Under the pieces are notes generated by a model. That model had not been told where the DNA came from, ran no database searches, and saw only the letters and a list, made by a program, of their open reading frames with translations. 4,227 nucleotides of DNA from a virus. Lineage: Duplodnaviria > Heunggongvirae > Uroviricota > Caudoviricetes. Positions 1 through 4,156 of the stretch are shown piece by piece. Every line of letters begins with the position of its first letter. Position 1 is the stretch's first letter. The DNA lies in IMG/VR virus record IMGVR_UViG_2554235189_000008; one strand, 5' to 3'. Made by a program: the position numbers and the translations under genes.

Positions 1-19
1 GGATTCCCGGGGCGGTTCA
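1..19 (-). mobile_element. Terminal inverted repeat (left end) of an IS3-family insertion sequence, IS629/IS1203-like; the element body lies outside the window to the left
   Basis: Reverse complement of 1-19 is TGAACCGCCCCGGGAATCC, an 18/20 inverted match to 4168-4187. It starts with TG as IS3-family termini do, and the lambda-like O reading frame breaks exactly at 19/20. The IS629 name is from memory. Confidence 0.6.
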
Positions 20-223
20 GTCCATTGGTTTATTCCACCCATAGGTTTTACGCAGAATGGCAAGCAGCACTTTAAACTGTCGCTTGGTCAGATCTGCGCC
101 TGAATAAGCCTCAATCAGCATATTTGATAGTCTGGCGTAACCATCATCGAGATCTGCCACATTACGCTCCTGTTCGGCAAAGTTACCTCTGCCGAAGTTG
201 AGTATTTTTGCTGTATTTGTCAT
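17..223 (-). pseudogene. O: Replication initiator O, N-terminal 68 codons only, truncated by the IS insertion
   Basis: Translation MTNTAKILNFGRGNFAEQERNVADLDDGYARLSNMLIEAYSGADLTKRQFKVLLAILRKTYGWNKPMD matches my memory of the lambda O N-terminus almost residue for residue. The in-frame stop (revcomp of 17-19) is supplied by the IS terminus TGA. No ori or O C-terminal domain is present. Confidence 0.8.
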
Positions 224-233: not shown

Positions 234-309
234 GTGGATTGATCCAGTAATTCCCTCAGAATTCCATCTGGATTTGTTCAGAACGCTCGGTTGCCGCCGG
301 GCGTTTTTT
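234..309 (+). ncRNA. oop: oop-like antisense RNA (antisense to the 3' end of cII)
   Basis: Plus-strand sequence GATCCAGTAAT...CCATCTGGATTTGTTCAGAACGCTCGGTTGCCGCCGGGCGTTTTTTATT is close to the lambda oop/t0 region as I recall it. It ends in a GC-rich hairpin plus T6 and lies in the cII-O junction overlapping the cII 3' end. Confidence 0.55.
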
Positions 310-552
310 ATTGGTGATTCCATCAAGCGCATACTTAAAAGCCCTGCTAATCGGACTGATGTCTGATGCCATTCCGAAAGCACACAGGACCGAAGCAATA
401 AACCGCCAGTCCGTTCTGCTTATCTTCGATTCATGACAGCCAATCATCTTTGCCAGACCGCGCTGGGTAAGCGTTGACAGGTTGATGAGTAAATCAGTTT
501 CAGCGCGATCAATTTCTCGCTGTGATAGTTTGCTGTAACTTGTTTGTTCCAT
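256..552 (-). CDS. cII: cII-like transcriptional activator (mosaic: C-terminus matches lambda cII, N-terminal two-thirds diverged)
   Basis: 98-aa ORF. C-terminal ...TNKKRPAATERSEQIQMEF is identical to the lambda cII C-terminus as I recall it. Position between cro and O is syntenic with lambda. Confidence 0.85.
   Translation of the reverse strand: MEQTSYSKLSQREIDRAETDLLINLSTLTQRGLAKMIGCHESKISRTDWRFIASVLCAFGMASDISPISRAFKYALDGITNKKRPAATERSEQIQMEF
284..309 (+). terminator. Rho-independent terminator (oop terminator, lambda t0-like)
   Basis: Stem CGCTCGG (284-290) / CCGGGCG (297-303) with one G-U pair, loop TTGCCG, followed by TTTTTT (304-309). Confidence 0.7.
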
Positions 553-637: not shown

Positions 638-652
638 TCGCTTTGTCAGCGA
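638..652 (-). promoter_or_regulatory. nutR boxB-like RNA hairpin (minus-strand transcript 5'-UCGCU GACAA AGCGA-3')
   Basis: 5-bp stem with pentaloop GACAA, between cro and cII on the PR transcript. The 13-nt core CGCTGACAAAGCG is identical to the hairpin upstream of N at 3594-3606. Confidence 0.45.
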
Positions 653-690: not shown

Positions 691-924
691 TTATGCAGCC
701 GATGCTCTACGCGATACGAACACTAGGTTTTCCTTTTTCACAGGTTTATAACCCGTGAAATTACGAGTAGCTTCTTCGATTGCATTCGCTTTATCAGGGG
801 AAGCTCTTCGAAATCCATATGCAATCTGGTCAAGATAGCCAACTGAAGTTTTCGCTAATGCGGCGAGTCGCTTCCATTCCTCACTAGAAGCCTCTTTTCG
901 CCAGCGTAGTAGTTCATTACTCAT
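691..924 (-). CDS. cro: Cro-like HTH repressor, divergent from cI
   Basis: 77-aa ORF transcribed divergently from cI across the operator region. SD GGAGG (revcomp of 931-935) lies 6 nt before the ATG. Probable HTH in ...TSVGYLDQIAYGFRRASPDKANAIEEAT... Confidence 0.75.
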   Translation of the reverse strand: MSNELLRWRKEASSEEWKRLAALAKTSVGYLDQIAYGFRRASPDKANAIEEATRNFTGYKPVKKENLVFVSRRASAA

Positions 925-1037: not shown

Positions 1038-1742
1038 ATGGAAAACAAAGATATTCGCAAATCGAATCTGGCGTTTTTGCTAGATGAGCATAAAAAAATC
1101 GCGGGTAACACTAATGCAAGCTTTGCCGATAAGCTTGGGGTTAGCCCTTCTCAACTCACGCAAGTCTCCGGTGAAAAAAGCACTCGAAACATAGGGGATA
1201 AACTAGCAAGAAAATTTGAAGCCGCGCTTGGGTTACCTAATGGGTGGCTTGATTTGGTACATGATGTAACACCAATTGCATCATGCTCAGATTCTTTAAC
1301 TTTTGTCGGTCAGGTAAGAAAAGGGTTAGTGCGCGTGGTTGGTGAGGCAATTCTTGGTGTTGATGGTGCCATCGAGATGACCGAAGAGCGCGATGGGTGG
1401 CTCAAAATTTATAGCGATGATCCAGATGCCTTTGGTCTTCGTGTGAAAGGAGACAGCATGTGGCCCAGAATAAAATCAGGAGAATATGTACTCATTGAGC
1501 CTAACACCAAAGTATTCCCGGGTGATGAGGTGTTTGTCAGAACCGTTGAAGGACACAACATGATTAAGGTTCTTGGCTATGACAGAGATGGAGAATACCA
1601 ATTTACAAGCATTAACCAGGATCACAGGCCTATAACGTTGCCTTATCATCAAGTAGCAAAGGTGGAGTATGTAGCTGGTATTCTGAAGCAATCTCGCCAT
1701 CTGGATGACATCGAGGCAAGGGAGTGGCTGAAAAGTTCGTGA
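1038..1742 (+). CDS. cI: CI-type prophage repressor, N-terminal HTH plus C-terminal S24 (LexA-like) autopeptidase domain
   Basis: 234-aa ORF. HTH-like segment ASFADKLGVSPSQLTQVSG, and the S24 catalytic-serine motif GDSMWP with a downstream Lys (MIKVL). Divergent from cro across the operators. Confidence 0.9.
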   Translation: MENKDIRKSNLAFLLDEHKKIAGNTNASFADKLGVSPSQLTQVSGEKSTRNIGDKLARKFEAALGLPNGWLDLVHDVTPIASCSDSLTFVGQVRKGLVRVVGEAILGVDGAIEMTEERDGWLKIYSDDPDAFGLRVKGDSMWPRIKSGEYVLIEPNTKVFPGDEVFVRTVEGHNMIKVLGYDRDGEYQFTSINQDHRPITLPYHQVAKVEYVAGILKQSRHLDDIEAREWLKSS

Positions 1743-1802: not shown

Positions 1803-2144
1803 ATGGCGTTCACTGACCTTGAATATCAAGCGGTCAAAAAAGAAGTTCACCAATTCATTGAAAGCATAAGGCCGCCTGAACATATCCGCAATGAACTGGA
1901 TATTGTTTATAGCATCAATGACCAAACGATAGATATCGGCGAACAGCGCCCCGTGTGGCAGGGCAACCCAGGTGAAACAAACATCCTGCCATCAGCAAGA
2001 ATCAAGTACATACGTTCTCTGGATAGATGGAAAATCTATTGGATGCGGAAGGATATGAAATGGCATCAGTACAGTACTGAACTTTCGCTGACTGATGCGC
2101 TTGAGCTTGTGCGTGCTGACCCGGATTGCTGCTTCTTCGGATGA
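1803..2144 (+). CDS. Hypothetical protein (113 aa), first gene of the cI-downstream accessory cassette
   Basis: Strong SD GAGGAGG (1792-1798) 4 nt before ATG 1803. Co-directional with cI, 60-bp gap after the cI stop. Trp-rich C-terminal half and a terminal DPDCCFFG. I cannot assign a family. Confidence 0.75.
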   Translation: MAFTDLEYQAVKKEVHQFIESIRPPEHIRNELDIVYSINDQTIDIGEQRPVWQGNPGETNILPSARIKYIRSLDRWKIYWMRKDMKWHQYSTELSLTDALELVRADPDCCFFG

Positions 2145-2214
2145 GTGAAGAGACGTTTGGATGATGGATGATCGCAGAGATGCTCGTAGAGCATACAGCG
2201 ATGCAGGAGAATTT

Positions 2215-2649
2215 ATGGCACTTAATTTAGAAAGAATATCTTTTATAACCCCATTTGATAGCAGCGAAGAACCCAACCAACCGACGCTTAATTTTACATG
2301 CAATGAATTTCCTGCGCGGCTATCAATTGATTTCAGGGTTGGTATGATCGGGTTGAAACCAAATTCAAGATATAATTTGGGTATTATGGTAATCCCCGCG
2401 CACCTAATTATAAAAAAAGGTGAGGAAATTCAATTCCCTGACGGCTCTTCGGAATCAGTTTCACTTTTCATCGATACGAAAGATAGCCATTTTGAAACAG
2501 GGGTTGGCGGACAGGTAATAGTAACATTGAAAGAAATTAGGGTCCCAGCTAAAGGGCTGTATAGTGTTATAGGGATATTGCAAGATAATGAAGACCCTAA
2601 AAATGAACTTCATAAAAATGAATCATTTTTCACCGTAGAGCTATTATGA
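2215..2649 (+). CDS. Hypothetical protein (144 aa from ATG 2215; the longest ORF starts at 2161 and gives 162 aa), second gene of the accessory cassette
   Basis: ATG 2215 is preceded by AGGAG (2205-2209) at 5-nt spacing; ATG 2161 has no good SD. The stop TGA (2647-2649) overlaps the next gene's ATG (2646-2648). No recognisable motif. Confidence 0.7.
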   Translation: MALNLERISFITPFDSSEEPNQPTLNFTCNEFPARLSIDFRVGMIGLKPNSRYNLGIMVIPAHLIIKKGEEIQFPDGSSESVSLFIDTKDSHFETGVGGQVIVTLKEIRVPAKGLYSVIGILQDNEDPKNELHKNESFFTVELL

Positions 2650-3266
2650 GTGACGACAGTAATTTAAATAATCATGGAAAGCAAGACACCAACATATCTG
2701 AAAGCCGGAGGTTGAAGGTTGTTGGCGGTTCCGATTTTGAGGCTGAATTTGATAATTCTCCCACCAAGGTGCAAAATAATTACATAAAACCGCCACAAAC
2801 GGAGGAAGAAGTGGGAACGATCAGCAGAGAGGAACTTGATGCTCGCTTAGCTGCTAATAAAGCAGAGATGGAGTCTATTGCTTCTTCCATTAGGGCTGAC
2901 ATGGCTCTATCTCGTGAAAGCGTTAATGTCCAATTTGCATCACTTAATGCAGCCATAAGCTCTCTATCGTCCAAGATCGATGGAAAGATGGATAGCGCTG
3001 CTGGCGATATAAAAGCAATTAATGGGAGATTCGAAGGAATTCAAGGACAAATAACAGGGGTTAATACCGCAATTAGTGGTGTTCAGTCGGGTATTTCTAT
3101 ACGATTAGCCATTTTTAGTGTCATTATCGCTGTAATAGTTGCGATTCCCGGGCTGGTATCAGCTTTAAAGTCAGACCACGCACCTTTGCAACAGCCTTCC
3201 ACTTTGCAAGCGCCGCCACAAAATACCCAGCCAACAGACAACAAAAAAACCACTCCCCAGCATTAA
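2646..3266 (+). CDS. Hypothetical membrane-anchored protein (206 aa): N-terminal soluble region with predicted coiled-coil character, one C-terminal TM helix, Pro/Gln-rich tail
   Basis: Single hydrophobic stretch IRLAIFSVIIAVIVAIPGLVSAL (about residues 152-173, nt ~3100-3165). Preceding Ala/Ser/Ile-rich heptad-like sequence. ATGA start/stop overlap with the upstream gene. Confidence 0.75.
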   Translation: MSDDSNLNNHGKQDTNISESRRLKVVGGSDFEAEFDNSPTKVQNNYIKPPQTEEEVGTISREELDARLAANKAEMESIASSIRADMALSRESVNVQFASLNAAISSLSSKIDGKMDSAAGDIKAINGRFEGIQGQITGVNTAISGVQSGISIRLAIFSVIIAVIVAIPGLVSALKSDHAPLQQPSTLQAPPQNTQPTDNKKTTPQH

Positions 3267-3272
3267 CGCATT

Positions 3273-3300
3273 AACCCGGCCTCAGCGCCGGGTTTTCTTT
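3273..3300 (+). terminator. Rho-independent terminator ending the cI/accessory operon
   Basis: AACCCGGC (3273-3280), loop CTCAGC, GCCGGGTT (3287-3294), then TTTTCTTT through 3300. It starts 7 nt after the stop of the last cassette gene. Confidence 0.7.
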
Positions 3301-3404: not shown

Positions 3405-3530
3405 TTTATTTATCCTGTCGAATTCCTACAACAAAATAAAACACCATAAGAATCAATACGATATTTGAAAACCAAGAGAATTTATCATTTTGCTATTGCC
3501 ATTAATTTATCATTCCGATAAAGTTCACCC
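3405..3530 (+). promoter_or_regulatory. OL/PL-like region: TTTATC operator sites (3409-3414; 17-mers 3481-3497 and 3506-3522) and PL-like promoter (-35 TTGCCA 3496-3501, 17-nt spacer, -10 TAAAGT 3519-3524)
   Basis: Site 3506-3522 TTTATCATTCCGATAAA is a perfect inverted repeat of the half-site seen in OR and overlaps the -10. The same -10 hexamer TAAAGT is used by the PR candidate. Confidence 0.45.
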
Positions 3531-3592
3531 ATCAGCAGGACGCACTACTCACCAGGGCGGTGAATATACAACGATTCGAATATGAATCTACG

Positions 3593-3607
3593 GCGCTGAC
3601 AAAGCGC
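3593..3607 (+). promoter_or_regulatory. nutL boxB-like RNA hairpin (5'-GCGCU GACAA AGCGC-3')
   Basis: 5-bp stem plus GACAA pentaloop about 60 nt downstream of the PL candidate and upstream of N. Core identical to the nutR candidate at 639-651. Confidence 0.45.
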
Positions 3608-3618
3608 AATAACCAAAG

Positions 3619-3759
3619 TGAACTTTGGGGTGTGGTGAAGGGTTCATGGACGGGAATATGTCGCACGTAAAGCGGCGAGGCCTGTAGGACTATTGCCGAA
3701 TTGAAGTAGGCCGAAACAGGTCGAAATGGGTCTCCCACCTACCACACCACCAAAGTTCA
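3619..3759 (+). ncRNA. Structured leader element upstream of N: 18-bp long-range stem (3619-3636 with 3741-3759, one bulged A at 3749) enclosing about 104 nt
   Basis: Revcomp of 3619-3628 (TGAACTTTGG) equals 3750-3759 (CCAAAGTTCA); revcomp of 3629-3635 (GGTGTGG) equals 3742-3748 (CCACACC). The 3' arm ends 3 nt before the N SD AGGAGG (3762-3767). Confidence 0.45.
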
Positions 3760-3772
3760 TCAGGAGGTCTAT

Positions 3773-4156
3773 ATGACACGCAGAACTCAGTTCAAAGGCA
3801 ATTCACATTCTCGTCGTCGTGAGCGTTTAAAGGCAAAGGCATTAGCTAACGGCGTGCTGGCCCGCGAAGAAGCAATAAGTTCAGAAGTATTACACCGCCC
3901 TACTCTAAGCAGAGCGCAGATTCAGGCTAAAGGTACTCACGAAACGCCTGAGCGCATAGAAGACGCTAAGCCAATTAAGTTCATGGCACAGGACGTGATC
4001 TGGCAGCAGAAAGAATACAGACGCAATCTGGAGCGAGCGGCCATTGTGTACGCGAATGAGTTTGGACATAAGCAACCAGAAACTGGTGTATGTCTTCCAA
4101 ACGTAGCCATTTACGCTGCAGGCTACCGGAAATCCAAACAACTGACAGCAAGATAA
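3773..4156 (+). CDS. N: N-like transcription antitermination protein (127 aa)
   Basis: N-terminal arginine-rich motif GNSHSRRRERLKAKALANG resembles the lambda N ARM (QTRRRERRAEKQAQW). Position downstream of OL/PL and a boxB hairpin. SD AGGAGG 5 nt before the ATG. From memory the sequence resembles N of H-19B/933W-type phages. Confidence 0.75.
   Translation: MTRRTQFKGNSHSRRRERLKAKALANGVLAREEAISSEVLHRPTLSRAQIQAKGTHETPERIEDAKPIKFMAQDVIWQQKEYRRNLERAAIVYANEFGHKQPETGVCLPNVAIYAAGYRKSKQLTAR

Follow-up and report, generated by a model that had tools for sequence, protein, structure and literature searches.

A probable counterpart of the lambda N-leader hairpin between nutL and the N ribosome-binding site of an H-19B/933W/HK97-type lambdoid phage

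The leader of the N messenger RNA of phage lambda contains a stem that we take to be a mapped RNase III site modulating N translation. Steege et al. are said to have identified this hairpin in 1987 as the place where RNase III processes the N leader, and Kameyama et al. reportedly found in 1991 that RNase III cleavage stimulates N synthesis. N together with Nus factors bound at NUTL is reported, by Wilson et al. in 1997, to repress the translation of N itself; a second study by Wilson et al., from 2002, is said to show that an RNase III cut between NUTL and the start lifts this repression and that the level of N is tied to growth conditions. The N-leader region of lambda is described as highly structured and as involved in the translational repression of N from nutL (PMC5725501). 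The review by Nicholson of 2014 makes no mention of lambda N.

Related arrangements are found in other systems. Nut regions consist of boxA, a spacer, boxB, and boxC (PMC2724277), and in the rrn operons boxC belongs to the RNase III stem on either side of 16S rRNA, in a Nus-modified complex (PMC8632103). In phage P22, a 96-nt RNA termed P22B accumulates in infected cells and in vesicles (PMC13397905). This RNA maps to the equivalent leader of gene 24, the P22 homolog of N, and the layout of the P22 leader is the same as that of the leader analyzed here. The NUT site of H-19B reportedly contains a 'reducer', described by Neely and Friedman in 2000 as a short hairpin inside nutL that affects antitermination. 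The reducer is a helix that shortens the linear RNA and brings flanking sites together; it is short and lies inside nutL, whereas the stem described below is much larger and lies downstream of boxB. No experiment on a leader of the type analyzed here was found in the literature.

The stretch of DNA analyzed here, referred to as the window, is 4,227 nucleotides long and is a lambdoid immunity region whose plus strand runs in the direction that is leftward in lambda. The following features were assigned.

17-223, minus strand: N-terminal part of an O-like protein, judged by eye from its location and sequence
256-552, minus strand: cII, from a match to Pfam Phage_CII
691-924, minus strand: cro-sized open reading frame, named cro by eye from position and sequence
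1038-1742, plus strand: S24-peptidase repressor, from a Pfam match
1803-3266, plus strand: three accessory open reading frames
3273-3294, plus strand: terminator-like hairpin, from a scan
3496-3524, plus strand: pL promoter candidate TTGCCA-17-TAAAGT, from a promoter scan, with pL/oL annotated there in mEp234
3773-4156, plus strand: gene for the N antitermination protein, 127 aa, of the H-19B/933W type, from Pfam and PHROG

The N protein matches Pfam N_peptide (E = 2e-15) and PHROG 271, the anti-termination protein N-like family (E = 2e-38). The counterpart of its gene is annotated as N in the records of H-19B, AU5Stx1, and mEp234, and the H-19B gene is 98% identical to that of the window at the DNA level. 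Two exact copies of an operator-like repeat, AATTTATCATT, flank the pL promoter candidate (3479-3489 and 3504-3514), and a third copy with one mismatch is present in the oR region (985-995).

The leader of N corresponds exactly to positions 3531-3772 because its first 15 nt, ATCAGCAGGACGCAC, are those of the lambda pL transcript start, because the equivalent of position 3531 is annotated as the 5' nucleotide of the pL transcript in the GenBank record of mEp234, which is 98% identical over the leader, and because the TTGCCA-17-TAAAGT promoter match lies just upstream of that start. The earlier note on this DNA had put about 240 nt between the pL candidate and the N start, in agreement with a 242-nt leader and the pL match at 3496-3524. 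Its description of the leader as unusually long has to be dropped, since the lambda N leader measures 222 nt by the same measure and such a length is normal for lambdoid phages. The leader contains the following elements.

3531-3772, plus strand: pL leader of the N mRNA, 242 nt, with +1 placed by homology
3541-3549, plus strand: putative nutL boxA, CGCACTACT, transferred from mEp234, a weak match to the consensus
3573-3588, plus strand: small hairpin GATTC-GAATAT-GAATC between boxA and boxB, present in the minimum free energy (MFE) and centroid structures
3593-3607, plus strand: nutL boxB, GCGCTGACAAAGCGC, the N-binding hairpin of the P22/H-19B type, from the mEp234 annotation
3618-3637, plus strand: 5' arm of the long-range stem, GTGAACTTTGGGGTGTGGTG, GT-rich and boxC-like, with no segregating site in 52 variants
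3638-3739, plus strand: multi-branched interior domain, from the consensus fold of 29 distinct variants
3740-3760, plus strand: 3' arm of the stem, TACCACACCACCAAAGTTCAT, with A3749 bulged, covarying with the 5' arm, one segregating site in 52 variants
3762-3767, plus strand: AGGAGG, the Shine-Dalgarno sequence of N, with 2 nt between it and the Watson-Crick stem upstream and 5 nt between it and the AUG

The small hairpin at 3573-3588 has an invariant stem and a loop (3578-3583) that varies among relatives, and it sits presumably where the reducer stem-loop of H-19B lies. The nutL boxB is invariant in the 52 variants. A second copy of boxB with two mismatches, on the minus strand at 638-652, is that of nutR (chance expectation 0.07). 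Together, nutL and N of the window are of the H-19B/P22 specificity type, unlike those of lambda.

The two arms form a single long helix. In both the MFE and the centroid structures, T3619-T3636 pairs with A3741-A3759 through 18 Watson-Crick pairs with A3749 bulged, at precisely the coordinates that the earlier note had given for an 18-bp stem with one bulged A. The pairs G3618·T3760 and G3637·T3740 lengthen the stem to 20 bp; the energy of the duplex is -31.1 kcal/mol. By comparison, the longest long-range helix among 300 dinucleotide shuffles of the leader reaches a maximum of 15 bp. The leader as a whole folds with an MFE of -86.4 kcal/mol (z = -3.67), and none of 200 shuffles is equally stable, which bears out the claim that it is highly structured. 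Two inverted repeats that use bases upstream of +1 were left out of account. The domain enclosed by the Watson-Crick stem had been described as GC-rich and about 104 nt long; its length is indeed 104 nt (3637-3740), whereas its GC content is only moderately raised, at 54% compared with 44% across the window. On its 3' side the Watson-Crick stem stops 2 nt short of the AGGAGG sequence. A reading of the stem as an intrinsic terminator was rejected, as the terminator scan is empty in 3531-3772 and the stem is followed by TCAGGAGG, with no U-run.

The stem was compared directly with that of lambda (NC_001416). The transcript order is the same, running from the pL +1 position through nutL, the stem, and the Shine-Dalgarno sequence to N. 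The lambda arms, GGCTTTGGGGTGTGTG...CACACACCACCAAAGC, are located directly upstream of the Shine-Dalgarno sequence of N, and their counterparts in the window, GAACTTTGGGGTGTGGT...ACCACACCACCAAAGTTC, occupy that same position. Over 12-13 nt each the arms of lambda and the window are nearly identical (CTTTGGGGTGTG/CACACCACCAAAG), and both helices carry the bulged A. The helices are of similar length and enclose about 89 nt in lambda and 104 nt in the window, in interiors that are unrelated in sequence. Where the helices differ, they do so by compensatory change: the base of the stem is G-C in lambda and A-U rich in the window, and its top is GUG/CAC in lambda and GGU/ACC in the window. The distance from the 3' arm to the Shine-Dalgarno sequence is about 8 nt in lambda and 2 nt in the window. 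RNase III of Escherichia coli usually requires a minimum of about two helical turns of double-stranded RNA, a length that the 18 Watson-Crick and two G·U pairs, interrupted by one bulge, provide. Position, arm homology, compensatory change, and helix length, which are all the marks of a lambda-type N-leader hairpin that computation can address, are thus present in the window. The stem is, with a probability of roughly 0.8, the H-19B/933W/HK97-type counterpart of the lambda pL-leader hairpin between nutL and the N ribosome-binding site, and the view that it belongs to a known control element and is not a new one is well supported. Cleavage and regulation are demonstrated for lambda only and would extend to the window phage by homology.

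Conservation of the arms was assessed on leaders gathered independently of the stem, by homology of the N protein (three N types) and by an 18-mer of the interior. When the 85 distinct 220-nt leader sequences from the N-homology loci alone are folded, a long-range helix of at least 12 bp ending at most 30 nt before the start codon is found in 75, compared with five of 85 shuffled sequences. The ten leaders that lack such a helix include eight accounted for by the type with a 229-nt interior, which exceeds the 220-nt limit, by one insertion of an extra open reading frame, and by one rearranged prophage; the remaining two (L049 and L077) have leaders of the window type, whose helix fell below the parser's threshold. 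When 24 distinct arm pairs are aligned, standard pairs make up 95.2% of the cells, a percentage that is somewhat inflated because the arm pairs were mostly picked by a script that demands a stable duplex. The compensatory changes and the count of 75 in 85 are independent of that filter. Both sides have changed in 11 of the 19 pairs, pairing falls to 38-47% when the partner strand is slid by one to three columns, and among 500 shuffles of the arm pairs none matches the observed values on four of five measures and one does on the fifth. Covariation, proposed in the earlier note as a check on the stem, is therefore present. The upper stem is wholly rewritten, with pairing retained, in Salmonella phage SPN9CC (GATGCGATG/CATCGCATC), in the L326 type (GATTGGATG/CATCCAATC), and in the lambda relatives of the L317 type (UGUGUGUG/CACACACA). 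The L297 type (AGTAGCGCG/CGCGTTACT), which is without the bulge, was left out of the covariation count.

The helix is also strand-specific. On the plus strand it is 1-7 kcal/mol more stable than its complement (for example, -29.6 versus -23.0 and -33.5 versus -26.5 kcal/mol), because G·U pairs become C·A on the other strand, and such asymmetry marks a structure under selection in the pL transcript, as opposed to a palindrome in the DNA. Nucleotide diversity (pi) across 52 indel-free variants of the leader and N is 0 in boxB, 0 in the 5' arm, and 0.002 in the 3' arm, compared with 0.0070 at second codon positions of N and 0.061 at its four-fold degenerate sites. The arm sequence is kept far beyond the needs of pairing, which hints at an additional, sequence-specific role. 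Proximity to the N start is not universal, since in phi80 about 40 nt separate the 3' arm from N and the same module has no N gene downstream in VT2phi_272.

The position of the stem suggests how it may act on N. Opening of the Shine-Dalgarno sequence and AUG (-12 to +2) is predicted to cost 4.8 kcal/mol in the intact leader and 5.4 kcal/mol in the cut one, whereas opening of the 30S footprint (-20 to +13) costs 16.4 kcal/mol in the intact leader and 7.6 kcal/mol after a cut in the 3' arm. The corresponding values for the lambda 30S footprint are 11.8 kcal/mol intact and 6.8 kcal/mol cut, so that the predicted effect is the same in both phages. In these models the Shine-Dalgarno sequence itself is free of the stem, which overlaps only the upstream part of the 30S footprint. 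As neither the Shine-Dalgarno sequence nor the AUG appears to be sequestered, direct occlusion would be partial at best.

By analogy with lambda, the most likely mechanism has two parts, in which N and Nus factors bound at nutL near the start and a partial block to the ribosome would act together and would be lifted by RNase III. Transcription from pL at 3531 would yield nutL with boxB at 3593-3607, after which the arms at 3618-3637 and 3740-3760 would close a helix of about 20 bp over the folded 102-nt interior. The helix would take about 140 nt out of the linear path, placing the N/Nus-loaded nutL beside the start site of N, and would bring a duplex up to the 5' edge of the site where the ribosome lands. 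The proximity of nutL and the adjoining helix may both hold N translation down. RNase III would then cut both strands of the helix and detach nutL and the structure from the RNA coding for N, so that N synthesis would rise and the output of N would follow the RNase III activity of the cell. The earlier suggestion of a structure-dependent control of N translation gains support from the covariation and from the homology to the lambda stem, and it is this homology that would extend the function to the window phage.

The interior of the stem is variable between phages and nearly invariant within the window type. The consensus fold of the 29 distinct variants contains the following helices.

3642-3645/3654-3657, plus strand: predicted interior helix P2
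3661-3668/3672-3678, plus strand: predicted interior helix P3
3679-3684/3717-3722, plus strand: predicted interior helix P4, the sole interior helix with a covarying pair
3727-3730/3734-3737, plus strand: predicted interior helix P5

The complementarity to ACAGG that the earlier note saw within the domain is that of helix P4, formed by CCTGT...ACAGG. Its covarying pair is UA in 19 of the 29 variants, CG in five, and UG in five, and the rest of the interior is nearly invariant. The window itself carries a rare variant, CCTGTAGG, found at three loci, which has one more pair in P4 than the commonest variant, where a C/A mismatch is present. A small plus-strand open reading frame starting at ATG 3647 was considered and rejected after the variants had been read by eye; it is not conserved because its length differs, with 13 codons in the window (TAG at 3686), about 19 in phi80, and a frame that reads on in the common variant. 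In a search of 185,579 species-representative genomes, the only matches to the interior 18-mer that mark the module are those in E. coli, Enterobacteriaceae bacterium LSJC7, and a 251-bp contig; the contig, labeled Xanthomonas pisi, does not differ from the common E. coli phage sequence. The other six of the nine matches are chance occurrences in unrelated GC-rich genomes. The window-type interior is thus confined to Escherichia-type prophages.

One frame harbors at least seven unrelated interiors, namely those of the window, lambda, H-19B, SPN9CC, L028, L326, and L297 types. The interior measures 133 nt in the window type (from CTTTGG to CCAAAG), 96 nt in H-19B, 71 nt in SPN9CC, 229 nt in the L028 type, 147-159 nt in the L326 type, and 71 nt in the L297 type. 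The window-type interior is combined with H-19B-type nutL and N in this window, 933W, HK97, and mEp234, and with lambda-type nutL and N in Louie and 683R2; it is also present in phi80, in VT2phi_272, and with several further flank types. The L028-type interior is likewise found with both lambda-type and H-19B-type nutL and N. The lower stem tracks the type of the flank and the upper stem that of the interior, while the core CTTTGGGG/CCACCAAAG is common to most leader types. Exchanges between interiors and flanks evidently take place within the arms.

This interchangeability raises the question of whether the enclosed RNA has a role of its own. The stem could be mainly a frame from which RNase III frees the interior of about 100-130 nt as a stable, phage-specific RNA, in addition to its role in translation; such an RNA might serve, for example, as a trans-acting regulator or as a protein decoy, and its function would differ by phage. 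On the same footing, the arms could be pictured as a fixed 'cassette holder' for structured RNAs of about 40-230 nt that are swapped by recombination in the arms and excised by RNase III as rRNAs are, in which case the interior of the window (3638-3739) would be a functional RNA specific to the phage and no mere filler. Both proposals are considered doubtful, although several observations favor them. Unrelated interiors occupy the same frame, with the window and L028 types on both kinds of flank. The diversity of the window interior (3637-3740, pi = 0.0079) is about that of second codon positions of N and far from that of four-fold degenerate sites, so that the interior does not behave as a neutral spacer would. 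In P22, a part of a related leader made up of interior and 3' arm accumulates as a stable fragment: P22B spans both of these (...GUACCAAAGCCAUUUCA), stopping 16 nt short of the gene 24 start codon, as placed by sequence search, the coordinates in NC_002371 disagreeing with the numbering of the paper. P22B differs from the window, however, in the sequence of its interior, and it is not a clean product of a double cut, since its 5' end lies outside the 5' arm. Other evidence also speaks against an excised RNA. Some interiors enclose just 40-60 nt or so, and H-19B, with the same nutL and a nearly identical N, carries a different interior, so that the interior is dispensable for the function of the leader. 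Covariation within it is limited to one helix, and its low diversity could stem in part from recent horizontal spread and not from selection. The small RNAs detected by Hfq RIL-seq in lambda lie elsewhere and not in the N leader (bioRxiv 10.1101/2024.10.31.621285). None of the known small RNAs of lambda and Stx phages that were checked is located in the N leader, with PreS/LPR1 at tL2a and LPR2 and 6S in the late operon. No interior is matched by an Rfam family: Rfam 15 gives no match with E up to 10 anywhere in 3531-3772, and none with E up to 1 in the leaders of lambda, H-19B, phi80, Louie, SPN9CC, L028, L297, L326, and P22. In VT2phi_272, the sole Rfam matches are isrK and C4, which lie downstream of the module.

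Improbable, too, is the reading in which the stem with its boxC-like 5' arm forms part of the antitermination signal and aids the complex of N, Nus factors, and RNA polymerase, and not translation. The GT-rich 5' arm presumably occupies the position of boxC in lambda nutL, and the composition of nut regions and the location of boxC in the RNase III stem of the rrn complex, as described at the outset, are in line with such a role. The proposed likeness to rrn is that a GT-rich, boxC-like strand beyond the Nus-loading site pairs with a distant complement and encloses structured RNA as a substrate of RNase III. The rrn stem, however, encloses a functional rRNA of 1.5 kb for maturation, whereas the N leader encloses about 100 nt and its output is translation of the downstream gene. 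Antitermination at nutR, which has a boxB in the window, works without a frame of the N-leader type. The rrn operons need neither boxB nor boxC for antitermination (PMC2724277). The conserved 3' arm and its place beside the N start point instead to the start of N as the target.

Slightly less probable still is that the inverted repeat is primarily a feature of the DNA and does nothing as an RNA structure; it would then be a conserved joint for recombination where mosaic segments meet, or would represent the terminal inverted repeats of a small, mobile MITE-like insertion. Interiors and flanks assort independently, exchanges must fall in the core, and a comparison of H-19B with the window amounts essentially to a replacement of the segment between the arms, all of which would suit a repeat acting at the DNA level. 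The retention of pairing by compensatory change is nevertheless unexpected for a recombination site or for a repeat bound by a transposase, and the G·U pairs make the structure strand-specific. The arms are present in every leader type, lambda included, and were therefore not brought in by one element; this, the tracking of flank and interior by the lower and upper stem, and the lack of a target-site duplication flanking the arms, as read from the sequences, led to the rejection of the MITE reading. Recombination within the arms is better taken as a consequence of their conservation.

That the 68-codon minus-strand open reading frame at 3532-3738 codes for a protein, with the structure being secondary, has a negligible chance of being correct: it is open in 123 loci of the commonest variant, and some automated annotations place a 'hypothetical protein' over the region, but it matches no Pfam or PHROG family, its substitutions are distributed 7/7/10 by codon position as against 15/16/40 in N, one variant gains a stop, its frame and length shift with every combination of flank and interior, and on the antisense strand it would extend across boxB and boxA as far as the pL start. 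Antisense runs of 43-81 codons without a stop are found in most leader types, and that of the lambda leader has 71 codons. These similar stretches, the lack of third-position bias, and the lack of a family match uphold the earlier view of the frame as an artefact, and a spurious gene called by some automated annotations is thereby removed.

This leader structure is widespread and has no match among Rfam families, and its stem illustrates how mosaic exchange can fall within a functional RNA helix. The frame with interchangeable interiors is an aspect that was not found described in the literature. N is the first gene expressed by a lambdoid phage, and its amount influences whether early transcription proceeds. 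In the Shiga-toxin phages with such a leader (933W and H-19B relatives), N-dependent readthrough also feeds the pathway of toxin expression. If the control element of lambda has been conserved in its relatives by compensatory change, their output of N is probably tied to the RNase III of the host.

Besides the nutL boxB (3593-3607, plus strand), the window contains two further elements that resemble components of nut sites.

638-652, minus strand: TCGCTGACAAAGCGA, a second boxB that differs from the nutL copy by two mismatches
3573-3588: GATTC-GAATAT-GAATC, a hairpin flanked by the putative boxA and boxB

The second boxB is located between cro and cII, the position expected for nutR. The stem of the hairpin is constant among relatives, with variation confined to the loop (GAATAT, AGAGAT, AGTGAT, and AAGCAA), and its site is that described for the 'reducer' of the H-19B NUT.

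Downstream of the hairpin, the domain enclosed by the long-range stem of the N leader carries in the window a rare variant at 3685-3686, CCTGTAGG, which is present at three loci, the commonest form being CCTGCGGG (83 loci). The CCTGTAGG variant adds one U-A pair to the interior helix P4 (3679-3684/3717-3722) and introduces a new TAG that shortens a plus-strand mini-ORF called by some annotators.

The same stem also frames other interiors and adjoins other neighbors. In three viral contigs (L028, L236, and L289), the arms enclose a GC-rich interior of 229 nt, which has no match to an Rfam family and is found with both lambda-type and H-19B-type flanks. A lambda-type leader, L293, harbors an additional short ORF with its own SD and a start reading ATGAATAACGAAGCG...; this ORF is an insertion upstream of N and downstream of the stem, which is thereby separated from the N start. 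In the 701-1140 region of phage VT2phi_272 (L005, HQ424691), the stem-framed module has no N gene downstream; the module is followed by two RNAs and then by a Rha-family gene.

L005 889-964: isrK RNA, 58.7 bits
L005 989-1076: C4 antisense RNA, 77.1 bits

Three viral contigs display rearranged copies of the module, which probably represent decayed prophages. In L107, the 5' arm and the initial two-thirds of the interior are fused to unrelated sequence, and in L142 and L365 the 5' arm is missing. A 251-bp contig labeled 'Xanthomonas pisi' DSM 18956 (NZ_JPLE01000293.1) is identical to the common Escherichia coli phage N leader across the 185 nt inspected, from the nutL boxB into N, and most likely reflects contamination in that assembly.

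Beyond the repressor gene, the window contains three accessory ORFs on the plus strand.

1803-2141, plus strand: DUF3024 protein, encoded by the accessory ORF nearest the repressor gene
2161-2649, plus strand: ORF with no significant family match
2646-3266, plus strand: ORF with no significant family match; C-terminal segment of the product apparently hydrophobic, as judged from its sequence

The first occupies the position held by rexAB in lambda, and its product is a match (E = 7e-42) to PDC-S43, a candidate defence family in PADLOC.

A small RNA, the 96-nt P22B, has been reported for phage P22 and was described with no link drawn to the N-leader hairpin or RNase III (PMC13397905). Positions 451-546 of L370 (the P22-like phage As3) are identical in sequence to the published P22B, and this small RNA coincides with the interior and 3' arm of the leader of gene 24, the N homolog.
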